56,421 nt of DNA from an uncultured Bacilli bacterium (lineage in GTDB: Bacteria; Bacillota_I; Bacilli_A; RFN20; CAG-826). The first letter of the stretch is position 1; every line of letters begins with the position of its first letter. Under the pieces are notes generated by a model. That model saw nothing but the letters and a program-made list of their open reading frames with translations. It did not search any database and was not told where the DNA came from. Of this stretch, positions 7,901-56,067 are shown in pieces. The DNA lies in assembly GCA_944336335.1 (NCBI GenBank), contig CALVLC010000036.1:1-56421 (forward strand), written 5' to 3'. The translations under genes were made by a program, and so were the position numbers.

Positions 7901-8035
7901 ATCAATTGTTGACAAAACGTCTTCATTTACTGTTTCTGCCTTTGTTTCTTTGCTACTAAATGGAGCTAAACTATTAACAGAACTTAGAATTGTTGATGCC
8001 GATATAACCATCAACGTACAAATTTTTTTAATCAT
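4901..8035 (-). CDS. Secreted multidomain GH127-family glycosidase (beta-L-arabinofuranosidase-like) with N-terminal LamG-like and beta-sandwich domains
   Basis: Signal peptide; HDLYNFGCLAEAA, GHAVRA, YCETCASVG and PCC motifs match the HypBA1-type E-x-C / CC zinc site; FKYGPLVYCAE; LIPFY. Confidence 0.85.
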   Translation of the reverse strand: MIKKICTLMVISASTILSSVNSLAPFSSKETKAETVNEDVLSTIDGLEVRFDASTLDLEDGSKVSTLENLAPYTLEGNGDAAQDNSARQPSFVKSSELNGKPAVRFSRNSYMQVGADTGFNLDDMTIFVVAKFDELYDHADIFSHLTNGSPWNHERFFNIEGSQLNYGWADAVKEGSYYQAKVSFDYESPVIISGRKSGEDADVGVNGTIESSFKGSTKTPDIEAPVSLGGSAENDSFTGDLGEILVFNRGLTDGEYQTVEAYLESKWGLEYLHENALSDLTINGETVKGFSPTTYSYPLLLEEDIKKESIAFETYYSDDTATVNEVGANHFEVVVGSGKNSRTYTIKGEKMQYDFNEIQRTTSNEVKLNDGFWSNMYEQYSTHTVNFMFDMFELSNSFDNFDRVAKGEKHILGNLSDHAGQVRRPDDATNVNNTTWTWIDEPWREGLIYEGIRAAAAFIYTNKDDSKLSGSAYQLQERVDKYIEQIFEASKKTTAKDGRGKPVDGYFSTYNILKYDYVCDETEAAGRWHHDLYNFGCLAEAATYWYRATGDTRLLFAATRFAEFIVDYIYGRDGFQGYMVVPPHELPEEAMENLYLLYKENPELVEYMEKKYSNLEGVSPSDRYYSLDIRFDKYNDIACSWITERGHTEGRYNNTSNGAYAQDNQDYREITEAQGHAVRANLWYNGMAYLANKEENFSFAEAAYSIWNNIVNSQMYITGGTGSTKNGDEAYGGTNQLPHDGYCETCASVGMAFYSQNMFNIFGDAKYADQVELEMYNGILGCLGLDGNSFYYTNPMISDNYVRPQFSNVTPCCVPMFLKYYSELPEIIYAKSEDTLFINQYVSSTFDSKVGNTKVQLIQYSDVPTGNVMKFESRSEGKYNLKVRMPSWSTKADIKVDGLTYTFNVSEDGYINFELASGKHEVEITFDRQVMRMYQDYEEENQGRVAFKYGPLVYCAERIDNKNFIDDDTITITKTEEVRVELDETTFVRKIDEETSYAIPTNILKVNGNKDGRVRELTLIPFYLRGNRDPQEQKMVVWIKEAE

Positions 8036-8055
8036 ATTAATTACGTCTCCAAAAA

Positions 8056-8904
8056 TTATTTTGTTTTAAGAAATAGTTCAAGAGAATTTGAATAAATTGA
8101 TCTCATTTTAGTAGGTGTCATTTTATAAAATTCTTTGAACTGCCTCATAAAATATTCAGCCGAACTATAATTCAAACTTATTGCAATTGATTCAATAGTA
8201 TCATCGCTATTTAAAAGCATCTTTTTTGCTTCTTCCATTTTCATTTTTAAAATATATTTTAATGGAGAAATGCCAAGATATTCTTTAAAAAGCATATAAA
8301 TATACTTCTCACTGTATCCAAATTTTTCTGCTAAATCTGCGATTTTAATATCTGCATGTTGAAAGTTGTTATCAATATAACTAACCATCGCATTAAATCT
8401 TTTATTTTTAAATGCTGGAACATTGATATTATTTTCTAGGGAGAATTCTTCAATTATTGTAGTTAATAATAAGTCTCTAATTCTCTTTGTATCTTTATTC
8501 TTATAGTCATATTGTTCAAGTTGATATGACAAAGTCAAAATATATTCAGGGAAGTTTGTTGAAAACTTGATTGGTAATATATAGTGATTGCCTTTCTTTC
8601 TATATTTTTCAACTTCATCTTCTTCAACAATTTTAGAATCAGCAGGTAAATAGAAATGATGCCAATGAAGAACGCAATCTGTTGCCTTAAGTCCATAATG
8701 TTTTATTCCTCCAGGAAGAAGAAATAAATCGTTTTTCTTTAAGCAATAATCTTCAAGATGATGGATTAATATTTCGCCGCTCACAATAAACATAAGCTCA
8801 GTTTCATTCATAGTTCTTGTTTCATGAACGTGATGCTTATTGTGTGCAATTCCGCTTTGCACGTGCTCAATTAATCCATTTTTCTTAAAGACAATATATT
8901 TCAT
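8056..8904 (-). CDS. AraC-family transcriptional regulator
   Basis: N-terminal cupin-like sensor; C-terminal double HTH (IADLAEKFGYSEKYIYMLFK; YFMRQFKEFYKMTP). Confidence 0.92.
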   Translation of the reverse strand: MKYIVFKKNGLIEHVQSGIAHNKHHVHETRTMNETELMFIVSGEILIHHLEDYCLKKNDLFLLPGGIKHYGLKATDCVLHWHHFYLPADSKIVEEDEVEKYRKKGNHYILPIKFSTNFPEYILTLSYQLEQYDYKNKDTKRIRDLLLTTIIEEFSLENNINVPAFKNKRFNAMVSYIDNNFQHADIKIADLAEKFGYSEKYIYMLFKEYLGISPLKYILKMKMEEAKKMLLNSDDTIESIAISLNYSSAEYFMRQFKEFYKMTPTKMRSIYSNSLELFLKTK

Positions 8905-43479: not shown

Positions 43480-45050
43480 TTAATACCTTCCATAATCAAA
43501 CATATCTTTCATTTTCTTAGACCAAGGTAAGACTTCCTCAATGTCGAAGCCTTCTTCGTAACCTAATGTTCCTATAAGATAAGAAAGATATTCAATAGTG
43601 TCTAAATCATTCTTCAAAGAGCTTTCTATAAGGCTAAATAATGATGATGTAATTGGAGCAAAAACTTTACTATTTCCTTTACTTACATAGAACTTAGCCC
43701 CACCTAAAAGCACTTTATAGGATGAGTAATCTATGTCTATACTAATTTTCCCATTATTTAAAAATGCATATATATTCGCTTTTGCTTTTAAAAGTAGTTC
43801 TAACTTTTGCTTTGTTGATTTACTCCCCTTTTCTTTGATGGATTCTACATAATCAAAGAACTTGTTAATTAAAGGAATCAATATTCGATTTCTTTCTTTT
43901 GCAATAGCTTTTTCATCATTCTTATTTTTTCTTCGATTTCTTGCGCATTAAGAATCATATCAAAGTTCATTTCATTAAGATCGATTAACTCTTTTTCAAG
44001 TTAGGTATATTTAGTAGAAGTTAAGAAAGTATCGATTTCTCTAAAAGTAACTACTTCTTTAATCTTTTCTGAATTAGTAATTCCAACTTCATCAACATCA
44101 AGGATAAGATATATTAAGTCTTGATTGTTACTTAACTCATTTAATTTTGAAATCAAATCATCTGATACATCAAAGATTGAAAATTTCTTTTCACTTATTG
44201 CTGAACCAAATATATTCAAGTAGATTTCTCCAGCTTTACGAACTTTTTGGTTCTTAACATCAAGAATATCAATTGGTAATCTACTTAACTTAAAGACATC
44301 TATATCTTCAGCAGCTTCTTTTACTCTATTTATAACTGGTTTAATAATCTCATAGGCTCTAAAAAAGTGATTTGCTAAAGTTTCTTCAGTGATTTCAATT
44401 CTACAATCATCTTTTAAATATTTTGTAGCAAGATATAAAGGATAGTCATTTAAGAAGCATTCAAATAGCAGAAATGAAATTAATGATGGAGATATAAGTT
44501 CATCATCAAATAACTTAGTAGCCTTTGTATCTTCTTCATATATTACCTTACCTTGATTACCATCCTTTTTAAGATACTAATATGTATTGCAACGAGCAAG
44601 ATAAACTTTGTCCTTTAGATTAAATTCTAATTTCTTTGCTATAGTTATTTTATTTAGTTTCTTTAACGAAGGATCATCATCAATTGTTATATTAATATGA
44701 GTTTTCTTTAAATGACTTTCATCAATTTTAACAAATGGTTTAAAGGCCTCGGGACTCTTTTTAATGAACCCACTTGGTAACTTTTTAACTGTCTCATTTA
44801 TAGACGATGAATTCTTATATAACTCATAAGAATCATCTATATCACTAAAATAAATAAGTTTTGAATCACTATTTACATTCTTTTGAAGTATATAAGTTAA
44901 GATTCGTATTAATTTAAGTGATTCTTCTTTGCAATCATTAATTTTTGTTAAAGCTACTATCAAAAACTTTTGTTTTCTATGTTTTCCTGAAGCTTTGTTA
45001 TTTCTTCATCAAAATTTATGTTCTTCTCTTCTTACTTCATGTATTTAATT
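43480..45050 (-). mobile_element. Highly diverged, disrupted IS66-family TnpC-like transposase remnant
   Basis: ISPSLISFLLFECFLNDYPLY..ITEETLANHFFRAYEIIKPV, FLNNGKISID and SLFSLIESSLKNDLDTIEYLSYLI..IEEVLPWS match IS66 TnpC patterns; in-frame TAG at 44577-44579; frameshifts around 43880-44000. Left boundary is approximate. Confidence 0.62.
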
Positions 45051-45339
45051 TAAGCATTAATTAATATGAAAATCTATATTTCTTGTTTAACATAAACCGT
45101 ATGCTAAAATTATCGGAAGAAACAACATAACACAATAAACAATTTTCCATTCAAATTAATAACTTTTTGTGGGTAATTATTTAAATAAAAAAATTGAAAA
45201 ATTTGAATCTGTAATAATGTACTTGAATTTTGCCATATAGAATATCCTCCGTAATATCTTTATTTGGTATGATTTGAGTTAACATATTTAATTAATAAAA
45301 CCTAATATAAATAAAACATTTAAAAAACCTTATATTTCG

Positions 45340-50713: not shown

Positions 50714-50741
50714 TTAAAAAATAAAAATTGTTTGATTTAAA

Positions 50742-50885
50742 TTAGTTACAGTTACAGTTTGAGCAGCCAAAACACCAATGACCATTATTAAATTCGTCCC
50801 AAACTTCCTTTGTGAAAACCATGTTTTCTTCTACTAAAAGAATTGGTTTTTCATAAGTAATTTTATTATCCAATTTTTTTTCCAT
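50742..50885 (-). CDS. Putative RiPP precursor, 47 aa: MEKKLDNKITYEKPILLVEENMVFTKEVWDEFNNGHWCFGCSNCNCN (absent from the ORF track)
   Basis: AAGGAGG RBS 8 nt before ATG 50885; YxxP leader motif; Cys/Trp/Asn-rich C-terminus; stop 28 nt before the rSAM/SPASM start. Confidence 0.88.
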   Translation of the reverse strand: MEKKLDNKITYEKPILLVEENMVFTKEVWDEFNNGHWCFGCSNCNCN

Positions 50886-51139
50886 TTTCTTGTCCTCCTT
50901 TTTTATTTTACAACTATAGAAATGATTTTTTCAACAACCAATAAGTAGAATAGTAATGACTGAAAAGAGATTTAATCTCATCAAGTTTTGTCAAATATTA
51001 AGAAATTATAGATTAACTGACGTTTAGTTTTAATAATGGGTTCATAAAATTAATGCAAAAAATCTTAAAAGGGTAAAATCATTATCAAATTTTAGGAAGT
51101 AACTTTAATACAAGTGAAAAATATTATTTAGTTGCTTTC

Positions 51140-52558
51140 CTATTTTAATCGCCAAGATAATTCGCCATCTGCCATTAAAAGCTCTTCTCGTATTGCATCA
51201 TAATATTTTGTAACAACATAATCATCAAAGCGTCTAGCTTCAGAAAGGTATCTTAATGCTGAGTCTTTATTAACATCAACTCCTTCACCATAATAATAAC
51301 GTAAAGCCTTAAATTTATAGACTCTTGAATCTCCTCTAACATCAGCCAAAGAGAAAAAGTGTTCCGCTCTCTCATAATCTTGTTCTACGCCTAAACCATA
51401 ATAATGACAAACACCTAAACAATAGAGAGAATCTACATTATATTTAGCACTACCTTCTATAAAATACTTCACAGCTTCATCATATTTTTTTAATGAGTAA
51501 TAAAATCTACCTATAAGTGAGGCCTGACTCGGATAGGGATATCTTTTATAACCATAAATTAATAAATCACAAGCTTCTTCAACTCCTTCTCTATCTCCTA
51601 TTCCATGATCTAAATACAATTTCAAAATACTTTCGTATAAATTTTCATAATAGTGGTTTCCTACAAGATTATAACGTCTAATTAAAGCAAAACACGTTTT
51701 TGCCAAAGTAGTTGTTTGAAAATAGTCATGTTTCTTTAATAGCCAAAGAAAATCTACTAAATAATCTAAACCACCAATCTCAATTGCTTTTAAATAATAA
51801 GAAATAGCTTGGTTAATATCTACTTTTGGACCATAAAGATATTGGTAAGAATAAATTTCACCAAGTCTTTCGTATGCTTTTGCAGATCCTATAGAACTAT
51901 ATTTTTTCGCCAGTTCCAATTCAGCTGGTATATTCCTTTTATTATAAGTCTTTGAGTATTCACATTCTTGTTGAAAACGCTTATCTAAATCGGTTAGTTC
52001 AGTTCTACGAATGTAATTAGGTAATTCAATCTTAAAATCTAATTTTTTGATATCTTCACTCTTATTAGAAAAATTTGCGTCACATGTTTTTGAGTCTGAT
52101 TTAATTCTTTCAAAATAATAATCAAGTATCTTATCTTCTTCATTAAGATAATGCTTTTCTTCGTTTGGCTTTGGAACAACGATAGTAGAAAAATTAATAA
52201 GATTCTCCTTTGAATGATCTTCAGTAATATTTATACCATTGAAAAAACTCAATAAATTTTCTTCACTGCCATAAAGAGCCTTAACAAACCACTTTAATCC
52301 TTCATGTGCAAACTTTTCATCCATTAAGTAATTTTCTTTTACGTCATAAACAATACTTTGAAGATCTTCTTTAGATTTTATTGAGCAAACAGCTTTTAAA
52401 ATATCATCTTCACAAAATATTTTTAATATTCTTAATTCTTTTCTTCTATCAGGAAGAAAGTCGCTAAATAATGAAAATAGTCTTTTTCCATCATCAAAAA
52501 TATCATCAGAATATTGTTCTTTAATTTTTTTAATAATCTCAATGACATAATCATCCAT
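51140..52558 (-). CDS. Sel1-like repeat protein
   Basis: LYCLGVCHYYGLGVEQDYERA, YYYGEGVDVNKDSA, AYERLGEIYSY..GPKVDINQAISYY. Confidence 0.85.
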   Translation of the reverse strand: MDDYVIEIIKKIKEQYSDDIFDDGKRLFSLFSDFLPDRRKELRILKIFCEDDILKAVCSIKSKEDLQSIVYDVKENYLMDEKFAHEGLKWFVKALYGSEENLLSFFNGINITEDHSKENLINFSTIVVPKPNEEKHYLNEEDKILDYYFERIKSDSKTCDANFSNKSEDIKKLDFKIELPNYIRRTELTDLDKRFQQECEYSKTYNKRNIPAELELAKKYSSIGSAKAYERLGEIYSYQYLYGPKVDINQAISYYLKAIEIGGLDYLVDFLWLLKKHDYFQTTTLAKTCFALIRRYNLVGNHYYENLYESILKLYLDHGIGDREGVEEACDLLIYGYKRYPYPSQASLIGRFYYSLKKYDEAVKYFIEGSAKYNVDSLYCLGVCHYYGLGVEQDYERAEHFFSLADVRGDSRVYKFKALRYYYGEGVDVNKDSALRYLSEARRFDDYVVTKYYDAIREELLMADGELSWRLK

Positions 52559-52656
52559 AATGTATTCCTCTAAAAAATAAAAATAAATGAAGTTTTGCGA
52601 CTTAATTGAAAAAATTTAAGACTAATCAGAAAATTAAAACTGATTCAAAGTCACCA

Positions 52657-53955
52657 TTATTTCTTTTTCGTCAAAACCAAATATTTCTTTTCTAATCTTG
52701 CTTTTGATTTCTCTAAACCATCATAAACTTTTTTATATTCAAAATATTCCTTCTTAGCATTCTTAAATACAATTGAATTCTTTTCTCTTTCAGTGGCTAA
52801 TTCTTTATATTTATGATCGAATTCATCATATGTACTCAAAAGAAAACTTCTAATTAAATCACTGAAAAAAGTATTTCTTTTTTTGTAATCTTTCTTTAAG
52901 TCAGAAAATTGATTCTTCGTTTCATCAAATTTTTCTGAAGTAGCATCAAGTTTATTCTTAGCTTCTAAATACTTGTTTTCCAAAAAAGATAACTTACGAT
53001 TCATTGAATTTAGCTTTTCGCTTATTCGATTAATTTCTTGTTTGCATTTAAGTTCTTCTTTTTTGCTTTGATAAATAGCAAGCAATTTTTTGTCGATAGA
53101 TTTACTAACAATTCCTACAACGCTAATATCATCTTTACTACCATTTACACTTAAATAATCAAGATTAGTAATTAAATTACTTTGCAAATCCTCATTATTT
53201 TTGTAAGAATTTAGCAAAAGTTCTATTAAGTCACTGTAAAAATTACTTGTTGATTCTAACGATGAAAATGAATCTTCAACACCATCTGTCCCCATTAAAC
53301 AAGCAACTATATTTTCTTTGCATTCAATTAAAACATGTCTCATTTCATCTAAAGCGTTTTTGTCAGACATTGATGTTGTAACATTAGCAACACAGTTCTT
53401 ATCAATAGGCATTGGATCAAAACTATTACCTTTTTCATCGAAAATAAATATATGCCCATCGCCTTGTTGAATTAAAATTAAATAGCCATCAATTAATAAT
53501 CCACCAAGAAGAGTTGTACCATAAGCTTTAATAATCTCATCATTTGTTAAGCCTTTAGTTGTTTCTATTTTAAACTTAACAATTTCATCCTCACTTATTT
53601 GGTTATTAAAATAATGGTTAGTTACATTTTCAGTCCACCTATTTAAAATTGAAAGCTTTAATTTATAGAAGAAATCTAACTCTTTTTTCTTGTCATTGAA
53701 CAACGTTTCTAAAAACGTCAAATCAACGTCATTAACAATGGATCTTAAAGTTTCAAGCAATACTTCGCATGCAATTTTTGAGCCAAATGCACTTCGAAAA
53801 CATCTTCTATCACCATGTCCATCAGCAACTGCAAAGATTAAAAACTTACCATCACTATCACGATAAGATAAAGAATAATCTTGGCATGGTAAACCTTTTC
53901 TTTTATGCGAGTTTCCTAAAACTGTTTGATTAAATATCAAATAATTTGAAATCAT
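52657..53955 (-). CDS. PP2C-like phosphatase (TerY-P type) with C-terminal coiled coil
   Basis: GNSHKRKGLPCQD, AVADGHG, MGTDGV, KDDISV. Confidence 0.88.
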   Translation of the reverse strand: MISNYLIFNQTVLGNSHKRKGLPCQDYSLSYRDSDGKFLIFAVADGHGDRRCFRSAFGSKIACEVLLETLRSIVNDVDLTFLETLFNDKKKELDFFYKLKLSILNRWTENVTNHYFNNQISEDEIVKFKIETTKGLTNDEIIKAYGTTLLGGLLIDGYLILIQQGDGHIFIFDEKGNSFDPMPIDKNCVANVTTSMSDKNALDEMRHVLIECKENIVACLMGTDGVEDSFSSLESTSNFYSDLIELLLNSYKNNEDLQSNLITNLDYLSVNGSKDDISVVGIVSKSIDKKLLAIYQSKKEELKCKQEINRISEKLNSMNRKLSFLENKYLEAKNKLDATSEKFDETKNQFSDLKKDYKKRNTFFSDLIRSFLLSTYDEFDHKYKELATEREKNSIVFKNAKKEYFEYKKVYDGLEKSKARLEKKYLVLTKKK

Positions 53956-53959
53956 TTAA

Positions 53960-54748
53960 TTACCAATTACTTTCATCTAAATCAATAATAGTGTAATCAC
54001 TTGAATTATTATCAGTCTTCTTTGTTTCAGAAGATGAACTTTTATTTAAAGTAACACCTTTACAAGGGAGCATTTGCATAGTTTGATTAATAATCTCTAC
54101 TGCATTATTTGTATCAGAACTTGTTCTGCTCTTACTATTAACCATTGAAGATGTGATTGAAGCAACTTTAATTAAAGCTTTCAAGGTATCGTTATCATGC
54201 ACACTTATAACTGCTTCGCTATTTCCAACAACTCTAGCTAATGCTTCTTGATCAGCGTCTTCTCCGACTGCAATTCCAATTTTAGTTGCATGTCTAAACC
54301 AAGTATTATTTTTATTAGCATTTTTTAAAATATTAATATACGAATCAGTAGGATGACCATCAGTTAAAAATAAAATAACAGGAATACAGAAACCAACTTC
54401 ACTTTTAAGAAGTTCACTTCTTGAAAGTTTTTTATCTAATTCACTAATAGCATTACCTAAGTCGGTTGTCCCGCCCGCTACAAGATCGGTCCAAACAAAA
54501 TCTTCTAAATCTTCAAGAGTGTTTTCGCTAGTAATCCATCTTGATCCAGTCGAAAAAGCTAATGCAGCAATTTTTACCTGGGCATCTGGATTCTTTTCAG
54601 AAATATCTTTTAAAACATCTACTGTTTCATGCATTGCTTCATTAACTGCAGCAATCTTTTCTCCAGACATACTTCCAGAAGTATCTAAAACGTAAATTAT
54701 TGGTAAAACTTTCTTTACCATTTCAGTTGTATCGATTATATTTGGCAT
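53960..54748 (-). CDS. TerY-like von Willebrand factor A domain protein
   Basis: VLDTSGSM MIDAS, GGTTDLG, FLTDGHPTD; likely ATG at 54748 after GAGGAGG. Confidence 0.88.
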   Translation of the reverse strand: MPNIIDTTEMVKKVLPIIYVLDTSGSMSGEKIAAVNEAMHETVDVLKDISEKNPDAQVKIAALAFSTGSRWITSENTLEDLEDFVWTDLVAGGTTDLGNAISELDKKLSRSELLKSEVGFCIPVILFLTDGHPTDSYINILKNANKNNTWFRHATKIGIAVGEDADQEALARVVGNSEAVISVHDNDTLKALIKVASITSSMVNSKSRTSSDTNNAVEIINQTMQMLPCKGVTLNKSSSSETKKTDNNSSDYTIIDLDESNW

Positions 54749-54765
54749 AACTTCCTCCTCCTTTG

Positions 54766-56067
54766 TCAAATAATTTTTATTTCTTTATCAAAAACAATAA
54801 ATTTTATACCTGTTAAAACTGGGACAAGTTCATTTGGTTTAACCATTCTAACTTGCCCTGAAGTAGTTATTGCTTTTAATTCTTTTCCCATTTCATTTTT
54901 TAGACATAAAACTTTTTTACCATTACTAATTACATAAACACTATGCAAAATAGGATTAAGGGCTTCAGTATCATTACAAGAACCAAGTTGACAACGATAA
55001 AGCCAAGTTCCTCTAGCAATTGTTAGAGAATATTCTGGTAACTTTAATTTATGTTTGACGTTATAAATTCGGCCGCACTTTTCACATTTAGTATCACTTG
55101 CATCGTGAATAAATATTTCATTTCCGCAATCGCATTTTACAATTTCACTTTCAAATCTAGTTAAAACTTTAAGCCAGTCTGTTTCTCTTAAACGTTTACT
55201 TGGGTTTAAAATAGCTTCTCTTGAAAATGATTTTTTAAAAGCATCTTTAATATAATCAGGCATATATTTCCAGCGTAGAGCAACATTAGGTTGAAGTCGA
55301 TCAACCGGAGCATTACTTCTATCATTTTCATCATAGATGAAAAGGGCATTGTTTCCATAGATTTGTTCAGCAAATGCTGGAGTCATACAAGGTATACTTA
55401 CCCATCTTTTCCCTTCTAAAGGATGATTATTACATAAGATGATAAATAATATTATCGCTAATGAAAAACGATCAGATTGTGTGTTAGGCAAAACTTTATT
55501 GTGACCTGAAACAATTTCAGGAGCCATATAGCGTGGCTTACCAATAATACCCATATTTGTATTATTAGGTGCGACGTTATCGTTATCACAAATTAAAACA
55601 TCGCCAGTATCGGGATTAATAAAGAAATTGCCATCGTTTAAATCTTGATTACTATAACCTTTGTTGTGCAAAATTCTAAAAGCTGAAGTAATTTTTAAAC
55701 AAACTTCTATTGCTGCTTTAAATGAAGGAAATTTTACGCCACGAGCAATAATAAATTCAGATAACTCATGATATTCTTTTGGTCTTAATTTCATGACATA
55801 ACCGAAACTATTATTTATAGTTGTTGTTAAAGCTTCGGGCCATAAAAAATTCTTATCTGGTGAGCCATTAGAGATGTTGTTCTTTAAATTTTCATAAAAT
55901 TTCTTTTTATTTGTTCCAAAAGTCCTATACCATTTAAGAGCTTTTCTTTCACCTTTATATTCAACTTCATAAACATCACCTTGCCCACCACTTGCAAGGA
56001 ATCTTATGATTTTAATATTATTGCCATCGATTGATTTTAATATATCGCCTGGTTTAAATTCAGTCAT
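54766..56067 (-). CDS. Ser/Thr protein kinase (TerY-P triad type) with C-terminal zinc-ribbon-like motif
   Basis: LASGGQGDVY, ALKWY, QDLNDGNFF, CDNDN, YMAPE, DRFSLA; CDCG..CEKCG. Confidence 0.88.
   Translation of the reverse strand: MTEFKPGDILKSIDGNNIKIIRFLASGGQGDVYEVEYKGERKALKWYRTFGTNKKKFYENLKNNISNGSPDKNFLWPEALTTTINNSFGYVMKLRPKEYHELSEFIIARGVKFPSFKAAIEVCLKITSAFRILHNKGYSNQDLNDGNFFINPDTGDVLICDNDNVAPNNTNMGIIGKPRYMAPEIVSGHNKVLPNTQSDRFSLAIILFIILCNNHPLEGKRWVSIPCMTPAFAEQIYGNNALFIYDENDRSNAPVDRLQPNVALRWKYMPDYIKDAFKKSFSREAILNPSKRLRETDWLKVLTRFESEIVKCDCGNEIFIHDASDTKCEKCGRIYNVKHKLKLPEYSLTIARGTWLYRCQLGSCNDTEALNPILHSVYVISNGKKVLCLKNEMGKELKAITTSGQVRMVKPNELVPVLTGIKFIVFDKEIKII

Follow-up and report, generated by a model that had tools for sequence, protein, structure and literature searches.

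The locus and its operon

We analysed a 56,421-nucleotide stretch of DNA from an uncultured Bacilli bacterium (contig CALVLC010000036.1 of assembly GCA_944336335.1), hereafter the window. On its minus strand lies an ATG-initiated open reading frame of 47 codons that encodes MEKKLDNKITYEKPILLVEENMVFTKEVWDEFNNGHWCFGCSNCNCN, is preceded by an AAGGAGG sequence 8 nt before the ATG at 50885, and is followed on the same strand by six ORFs, each of which overlaps the next by 4–25 nt. The genome holds a single copy of the short gene. A promoter-like site (TTGAAA, 18 nt, TAAAAT) is well placed in the 254-nt gap upstream of it, but this is a consensus match only and weak evidence, as the region has no more such sites than shuffled sequence. 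The features of the locus are listed in Table 1.

Table 1. Features of the peptide locus and its operon in the window.
Position	Strand	Feature	Length
50905–50934	-	Promoter-like site (TTGAAA, 18 nt, TAAAAT)
50894–50900	-	Ribosome-binding site AAGGAGG
50742–50885	-	Precursor-type peptide gene	47 aa plus stop
50838–50855	-	Residues 11–16, YEKPIL: YxxPx[ILF] leader motif, inferred docking site for the PqqD-like protein	6 residues
50781–50822	-	Residues 22–35, MVFTKEVWDEFNNG: second conserved leader block (residues 26–36 predicted helical)	14 residues
50745–50777	-	Residues 37–47, WCFGCSNCNCN: probable core peptide	11 residues
49676–50713	-	Radical SAM (rSAM)/SPASM enzyme, inferred maturase	345 aa
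49407–49700	-	PqqD-like protein (RRE), inferred to bind the peptide	97 aa
48227–49420	-	Amidohydro_2 domain fused to a GNAT acetyltransferase	397 aa
47377–48243	-	Class II aaRS catalytic core without an anticodon domain (AsnRS/AsnA-like)	288 aa
46611–47390	-	Predicted single (alpha/alpha)6 toroid protein	259 aa
45340–46614	-	B12-type (class B-like) radical SAM enzyme; last gene of the operon; cobalamin binding inferred	424 aa

The observation made in the sequence-only reading holds in full: the ORF translates exactly as proposed there, with 2 Trp, 4 Cys spaced CxxCxxCxC and 5 Asn in its last 21 residues, a YEKP motif at residues 11–14 and the ribosome-binding site described. Only its label of an unannotated gene is partly true, as gene callers have called the ORF in public assemblies, always as a hypothetical protein.

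Pfam searches identified Radical_SAM, Fer4_12 and SPASM in the first enzyme and PqqD (5.4e-9) in the second. No NCBIfam model reaches its cut-off for any of the six enzymes. For the rSAM/SPASM protein the best-scoring models are WgkB (164 against a cut-off of 650 bits), the ACGX system (157 against 400), SbtM (148 against 350), MftC (106 against 265) and PapB (93 against 340). No significant Pfam or NCBIfam hit was found for the peptide or for 49 of its relatives.

The peptide belongs to a large conserved family

A word-indexed search found two relatives of the peptide. One lies on a 6.4-kb contig (L002) that carries the same seven genes in the same order, with a peptide 76% and an rSAM 77% identical to those of the window, and with GGAGGA upstream of the peptide gene. 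At the DNA level the flanks of the window and of L002 do not align while the ORF does. The rSAM has more than 1100 homologues with E<1e-30. Contexts at 53–61% identity, namely two gut metagenome contigs, Lachnoclostridium sp. An131 and a Synergistaceae MAG, carry the same enzyme cassette, but there the short ORF, ending WCF[G/A]CTNCNCN, sits between PqqD and the hydrolase rather than in front of the rSAM. A profile built from five such peptides retrieved at least 165 clusters at 90% identity, all of them unnamed or labelled hypothetical protein.

Members share a fixed 37-residue module, YxxPx[ILF]xEExxMxF[TP][KE]E[VI]WxxFxxGxWCFGC[TS]NCNCN, preceded by an N-terminal extension that varies from 3 to 43 residues before the Tyr. 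In 119 members, numbered from the tail Trp as position 0, we found Y(-26) in 115, P(-23) in 112, I/F/L(-21) in 108, M(-15) in 108, F(-13) in 119, W(-8) in 116, F(-5) in 118, G(-2) in 113 and W(0) in 119, while each of the four Cys is kept in 118. The tail WCFGC[TS]NCNCN is exact in 100 of the 119, and the Y-to-W spacing is exactly 26 in 112. Among eight loci, the last 11 codons differ by 2–10 synonymous but only 0–2 non-synonymous codons, indicating purifying selection on the peptide and not on the nucleotide sequence.

Linkage of the peptide to the enzymes

A scan of JGI/ENA metagenome contigs returned 79 more loci, which were searched by tblastn with the six proteins of the window. An orthologous rSAM/SPASM (at least 44% identity) lies beside the peptide gene in 45 of 51 loci with at least 1.5 kb of upstream sequence. 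In the 18 loci with at least 8.5 kb downstream, the toroid was present in 18, the B12-type rSAM in 18, the amidohydrolase in 16, the GNAT domain in 9 and the aaRS-like protein in 9. PqqD is adjacent to the peptide gene in most loci. The short ORF is thus co-located and co-oriented with an RRE protein and a putative core-modifying enzyme, and this arrangement is conserved across taxa. The presence of a conserved short ORF with orthologous SPASM genes had been set beforehand as a condition on which the precursor reading depended, and it is borne out by these counts, although the ORF usually sits after PqqD rather than upstream of the SPASM gene.

The peptide gene occupies three positions: after PqqD (most loci), before the rSAM (the window, L002 and locus L031), and after the last gene (loci L035 and L040). 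Other cluster types add an LVIVD propeller, a second rSAM/SPASM and a SAM methyltransferase. No transporter, exporter, immunity or peptidase gene or Pfam family appears in seven annotated contexts.

Leader and core

An exhaustive profile search of 1.84 billion representative sequences found 79 proteins. These include sister groups that keep YEKPxF...M.FP.E[I/V]...FNGG but end differently, in FC[I/V/M]QCS[G/S]CHGC[R/K], FQC[F/Y]HCNC[K/S/T]G or WCFGCTNC[T/Q/S]CR. They too have no curated family in Pfam or NCBIfam. One sister-group contig (L021) carries two such precursors next to PqqD, Amidohydro_2-GNAT and the toroid, while another (L020) has PqqD, the peptide, a 1011-aa TPR + metallo-beta-lactamase (MBL) protein and a toroid homologue. 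Since the sister groups retain the region up to F-N-x-G and swap the last ~11 residues, we infer that the leader runs to about G35 and that the core most likely starts at W37, and that the common denominator of the cores is the Cys spacing (CxxCxxC) and not Asn or Trp. The core proposed in the sequence-only reading, which began at EVWDEF, is probably too long.

The leader motif, YxxPx[ILF], matches the YxxPxL described for actinobacterial lasso leaders that bind a PqqD-type B1 protein (PMC6784204). It is duplicated or triplicated in some members (peptide clusters P0211, P0142, P0206 and P0223), which fits a modular docking site, and its role as a docking motif is supported by conservation, with binding itself being inferred. 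Single members weakly hit lasso precursor models (E 0.13–0.24), and some weakly match an Fe-S region of sulfhydrogenase ShyB (E 0.0012–0.002).

AF2 on 49 sequences predicts a helix at residues 26–36, with its best confidence over residues 11–20 and a disordered tail, at only moderate overall confidence for the free peptide (mean pLDDT 68). We also considered a thurincin-like beta-hairpin register, because the Cys at +1, +4, +7 and +9 and the invariant F-5, W-8, [K/E]-11 and F-13 all satisfy i+j = -4 around G-2. The prediction does not support this idea, although it is not excluded for the modified peptide.

Predicted properties of the enzymes

The closest solved relatives of the rSAM/SPASM protein are the thioether synthases SkfB (5.9e-14, only 55 bits) and CteB. 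The hydrolase keeps the amidohydrolase metal ligands (HxH, H, H, D): D5, H7, H9, H99, H127, H153 and D208 are invariant in eight homologues. Its nearest solved relatives, at weak E-values, are gamma-resorcylate decarboxylases, and PF04909 enzymes are mostly decarboxylases or lactonases rather than peptidases.

The AsnRS-like protein keeps the ATP-binding residues of motif 2 (FR..HL.E) and motif 3 (G.G.GI.R), which are invariant among homologues. It is the same size as archaeal asparagine synthetase A/AsnRS-related proteins (PDB 3p8t, 1nnh), likewise class II cores without an anticodon domain, and it matches these chains and EpmA. However, the matches are weak (E about 1e-3 to the archaeal proteins, and NCBIfam scores far below cut-off), and the substrate here is presumably a peptide. 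Homologues in cassette loci L018 and L162 still carry an OB anticodon-type domain. A scan of genome contigs with this protein returned only a phytoplasma AsnRS-like match at 26% identity. In a comparison of its presence with a C-terminal Asn in the peptide, 26 loci had the Asn and the aaRS, 12 had the Asn without the aaRS, and the single locus with another terminal residue was without the aaRS.

The toroid is predicted with confidence (AF2 pLDDT 90) to fold into a single barrel, for which the best Foldseek matches are class II terpene cyclase barrels (TM 0.67–0.70). A prenyltransferase beta subunit or a LanC was considered and rejected, as Rab GGTase beta appears only at E about 0.09 in a sequence-profile search and no LanC is among the matches.

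Distribution and genomic surroundings

The rSAM is absent from 40 related genomes. Of 399 genomes of the host phylum that were scored for the peptide (two further genomes could not be scored), only the window's own genome carries it, and the other 398, in 171 genera, do not. Homologues occur in Lachnoclostridium sp. An131 and in Synergistaceae, Dysgonamonadaceae, Bacteroidales and Spirochaetaceae records. The same cassette is present not only in the Lachnoclostridium and Synergistaceae records but also in Bacteroidales records and in other metagenome contigs. Flanks of the cassettes include integrases, transposases, toxin-antitoxin genes, Cas1/Cas3, HipA, Fic, a type I R-M system, NERD/nSTAND and TPR-CHAT, and in the window a kinase-vWA-PP2C triad, whose kinase hits PD-T4-6 models, plus an IS relic. 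Nothing in PADLOC 2.0 matches the cassette proteins specifically, with only generic radical-SAM similarity to pVip and PDC-M51A. The GC content of the operon (25–29%) is not clearly foreign to that of the window (26–35%). We read this distribution as that of an accessory island that looks horizontally acquired; its defence-island flavour rests on neighbours listed without comparison to a background.

Orphan copies in viral genomes

A search of the 2.9 million viral contigs of IMG/VR with the profile of the window's subgroup gave two loci. One is a provirus record with the whole cassette. The other is a complete 117,752-bp record with direct terminal repeats and a CheckV completeness of 100%, which encodes a single orphan peptide ending in YEAPLYERELESELSQEIWEEFAGGSWCFGCTNCNCN (E 2.6e-20; tail WCFGCTNCNCN) and has no radical SAM domain, no toroid and no rSAM orthologue. 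The neighbours of this orphan match no Pfam or PHROG family. With the sister-group profile, 57 viral contigs were found to carry YEKP...C[R/K/V]QCS[G/S]CHGCR peptides, and none of these 57 loci (495 kb in all) has any cassette enzyme within 6 kb. Of six records at least 90% complete, five have no radical SAM gene, and four of those five have terminal repeats. tblastn of the window's peptide against 50,697 GenBank phages and against PLSDB plasmids gave no match. Orphan phage copies are therefore common for the sister group and rare, but real, for this subgroup.

Comparison with known systems

Sactipeptides and ranthipeptides (SkfB, CteB/thermocellin, PapB/freyrasin, thurincin H) likewise have a short precursor with a regular Cys spacing, CxxCxxCxxC in thurincin H, and an rSAM/SPASM maturase with an RRE of the PqqD type, and SkfB and CteB are the best PDB matches of the present rSAM. 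However, the PapB (NF047865) and StsB models score 92.9 and 84 bits against cut-offs of 340 and 625, no ranthipeptide, sactipeptide or other curated maturase model reaches its cut-off, and no SCIFF-type or other precursor model is hit. In addition, the Cys cluster of the present peptide lies at the extreme C-terminus, its core is invariant rather than variable, there is no exporter or protease, and the Amidohydro_2, terpene-cyclase-fold toroid and B12-type rSAM partners are not known in those classes.

The mycofactocin (MftA/B/C/E) and PQQ (PqqA/D/E/B) pathways share a tiny precursor with an invariant C-terminus, a stand-alone PqqD protein, an rSAM/SPASM enzyme, a metal-dependent hydrolase and the lack of an exporter. 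MftC (TIGR03962) scores 106 against 265 bits, PqqE 69 against 381 and PqqD 32 against 46; the tail is NCNCN and Cys-rich, with no GVY or E-x3-Y motif, the cassette is sporadic and mobile, and no user enzymes were seen. The lasso systems share the leader motif and a PqqD-type RRE, but no B2 protease or AsnB-like cyclase domain occurs in the operon, the lasso PqqD model scores 25.5 bits against 80, and an rSAM enzyme would do the core chemistry. WgkB and SbtM, of the streptococcal WGK Lys-Trp system and a thio(seleno)oxazole pathway, are among the best-scoring curated rSAM/SPASM models, and N43-x-x-C46 formally forms the NxxC of the streptococcal beta-thioether system. All scores are nevertheless far below cut-off, that of the partner model WgkC being 19.6 against 110, and sister-group cores lack Asn.

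Interpretation

We hold with fairly high confidence that the ORF is the precursor gene of an apparently undescribed family of ribosomally made, radical-SAM-modified peptides. The analysis establishes that it is a conserved coding gene under purifying selection, that it is the first gene of a seven-gene, translationally coupled operon, and that across phyla it travels with an orthologous rSAM/SPASM enzyme, a PqqD-like protein, an Amidohydro_2 hydrolase, an alpha/alpha-toroid protein and a B12-type rSAM, with the GNAT domain and the AsnRS-like ligase as lineage-specific extras that are both present in the window. What these components do to the peptide is inferred from sequence and predicted structure alone. 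In this view, a peptide with a variable N-terminal extension is gripped by the PqqD protein at YxxPx[ILF], a short amphipathic helix (E-V-W-D-E-F) acts as a second recognition element, and the rSAM/SPASM enzyme, delivered by PqqD, acts on the Cys triad/tetrad of the 11-residue core. The metal-dependent hydrolase would then trim the peptide, although this role is a guess, its fused GNAT would cap the new amine, the AsnRS-like enzyme would use ATP to activate a carboxylate for ligation, the B12-type rSAM would methylate an unactivated carbon, and the toroid would supply a further obligatory step.

The interpretation given in the sequence-only reading is thus supported in part. Its precursor call and its YxxP docking motif stand, the latter in the extended form and by conservation, but of its three chemical options, namely ranthipeptide-like Cys-to-Asn/Asp thioethers, triceptide-like aromatic crosslinks and a Cys-rich metal-binding tail, Cys-to-Asn thioethers and Trp crosslinks are weakened as the family-wide reaction, since Asn and Trp are absent from sister-group cores in which the Cys spacing is kept. 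Intramolecular thioether crosslinks of the sacti/ranthi type are our best, though tentative, guess, resting on weak homology; other Cys-centred chemistry is less likely. Carbon-carbon or carbon-nitrogen crosslinks on W37 and F39, as in streptide, WGK or triceptide systems, with the cysteines serving as disulfides or metal ligands, are improbable: WgkB is the best NCBIfam match of the rSAM and both residues are invariant within the subgroup, but the WGK scores are far below cut-off, W37 becomes F, V or another residue in sister groups while the Cys spacing persists, and the closest solved structures are thioether synthases. That the ORF is a chance frame or a small unmodified, zinc-binding Cys-rich protein is very unlikely; although it is short, lacks a family annotation and contains CxxC pairs that can bind zinc without modification, it is under purifying selection across phyla, is linked to the rSAM/PqqD pair in three gene orders, and carries a leader motif of the type that RRE proteins bind.

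As the cassette carries no exporter or immunity gene and its core is almost invariant, we think that the product is not an ordinary hypervariable bacteriocin; these features fit a cofactor-like or conflict-related role at least as well as a secreted peptide. Two such roles, neither of which excludes the main reading, are possible but on present evidence doubtful. The peptide may be the scaffold of an intracellular peptide-derived cofactor or metal-binding molecule, in the manner of PQQ or mycofactocin, whose C-terminus would be crosslinked, cut off by the hydrolase and further tailored, or would hold a metal or Fe-S centre. The separate RRE, the presence in the sampled contexts of a hydrolase (Amidohydro_2 or, in the one sister-group locus seen, an MBL-fold protein), the CxxCxxC spacing typical of metal sites and the weak ShyB matches agree with this, but the cassette is sporadic and mobile, no conserved partner enzyme that would use a cofactor was seen, the MftC and PqqE scores are low, and phages would have little use for a cofactor precursor without its enzymes. 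Alternatively, the matured peptide, or the act of maturing it, may restrict phage, and orphan phage peptides would act as decoys that occupy the PqqD/rSAM machinery or would exploit it for the phage's benefit. The orphan viral copies and the defence-type genes among the cassette neighbours, listed without comparison to a background, agree with this, whereas only one orphan phage copy was found for the window's own subgroup, no defence model matches the cassette specifically, and mobile islands gather all kinds of accessory genes. If this unlikely reading were true, the WCFGC[S/T]NCNCN and sister CxQCSxCHGCR cassettes would form a new class of peptide-maturation system, built on an rSAM/SPASM-PqqD pair plus an obligatory terpene-cyclase-fold protein, that operates in phage-host conflict. 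The orphan copies in complete phage genomes raise the question of whether viruses use precursor mimics against, or together with, host peptide-maturation enzymes.

Radical-SAM peptide natural products are a major source of new chemistry, and their families are usually defined by the precursor. While rSAM/SPASM + RRE RiPPs are known as a general kind, this family, its enzyme set and its invariant core have no curated model in Pfam or NCBIfam, and literature searches for the tail motif and for the enzyme combination found nothing relevant, albeit leaving out about 1.7 million PMC articles and most subscription journals. The family is large, with at least 165 precursor clusters and more than 1100 close rSAM homologues, spans Bacillota, Bacteroidota, Synergistota and Spirochaetota, and occurs in gut and sediment anaerobes. 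Its combination of a terpene-cyclase-fold toroid, a PF04909 hydrolase, a B12-type rSAM and, in half the clusters, an AsnRS-derived ligase has no known precedent among described peptide pathways, and its nearly invariant core points to a conserved molecular target or role rather than an arms-race antibiotic.

Orphan peptides in viral genomes

A complete 117.8-kb virus record (direct terminal repeats, CheckV 100%) encodes one orphan peptide ending WCFGCTNCNCN. This record has no radical SAM gene, no toroid and no rSAM orthologue, and the ORFs neighbouring the peptide gene match no Pfam or PHROG family. In IMG/VR, 57 viral contigs (loci L104–L160) encode sister-group peptides (YEKP..M.FP..I....C[R/K/V]QCS[G/S]CHGCR) with no cassette enzyme within 6 kb. 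Four complete records with terminal repeats have no radical SAM gene at all.

Genomic surroundings and variation of the cassette

A Ser/Thr kinase, a vWA protein, a PP2C phosphatase and a Sel1-repeat protein lie directly upstream of the operon, and the kinase matches PADLOC PD-T4-6 models (E 2e-12). Other cassettes also sit beside Cas, R-M, HipA/Fic, NERD/nSTAND or TPR-CHAT genes, an association seen in these neighbourhoods without comparison to a background. Within the operon, the short spacer between the precursor stop and the rSAM start is AT-rich and includes no recognisable Shine-Dalgarno sequence or terminator hairpin, unlike many RiPP operons that attenuate transcription after the precursor.

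In the sister-group locus L020, a 1011-aa TPR + metallo-beta-lactamase-fold protein, with a faint Anti-Pycsar Apyc1 Pfam hit, takes the place of the Amidohydro_2 hydrolase next to the peptide and is followed by a toroid homologue.

Coordinates of features in the window and in related loci
Locus	Coordinates	Strand	Feature
L101 (IMGVR_UViG_3300028028_000007)	8001-8138 (44963-45109 in record G435)		Orphan peptide of the complete virus record
Window	51140-56067	-	Ser/Thr kinase, vWA protein, PP2C phosphatase and Sel1-repeat protein
Window	50714-50741	-	28 nucleotides between precursor stop and rSAM start
L018	11721-12899		AsnRS-like enzyme with OB domain
L162	4549-5673		AsnRS-like enzyme with OB domain
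L021	645-990		Two precursor ORFs
L033			Two precursor ORFs
L020	439-3474		TPR + metallo-beta-lactamase-fold protein

Some cassettes, such as those of loci L021 and L033, carry two precursor genes in tandem. In L021 the two have different tails (WCFGCSNCSCR and VFQCYHCNCKG), so that one enzyme set apparently serves two core types. In some cassettes, here those of loci L018 and L162, the AsnRS-like enzyme is 374–392 aa long and keeps an N-terminal OB (anticodon-binding type) domain, which suggests stepwise descent from a true AsnRS/AspRS and, possibly, tRNA dependence in those lineages.
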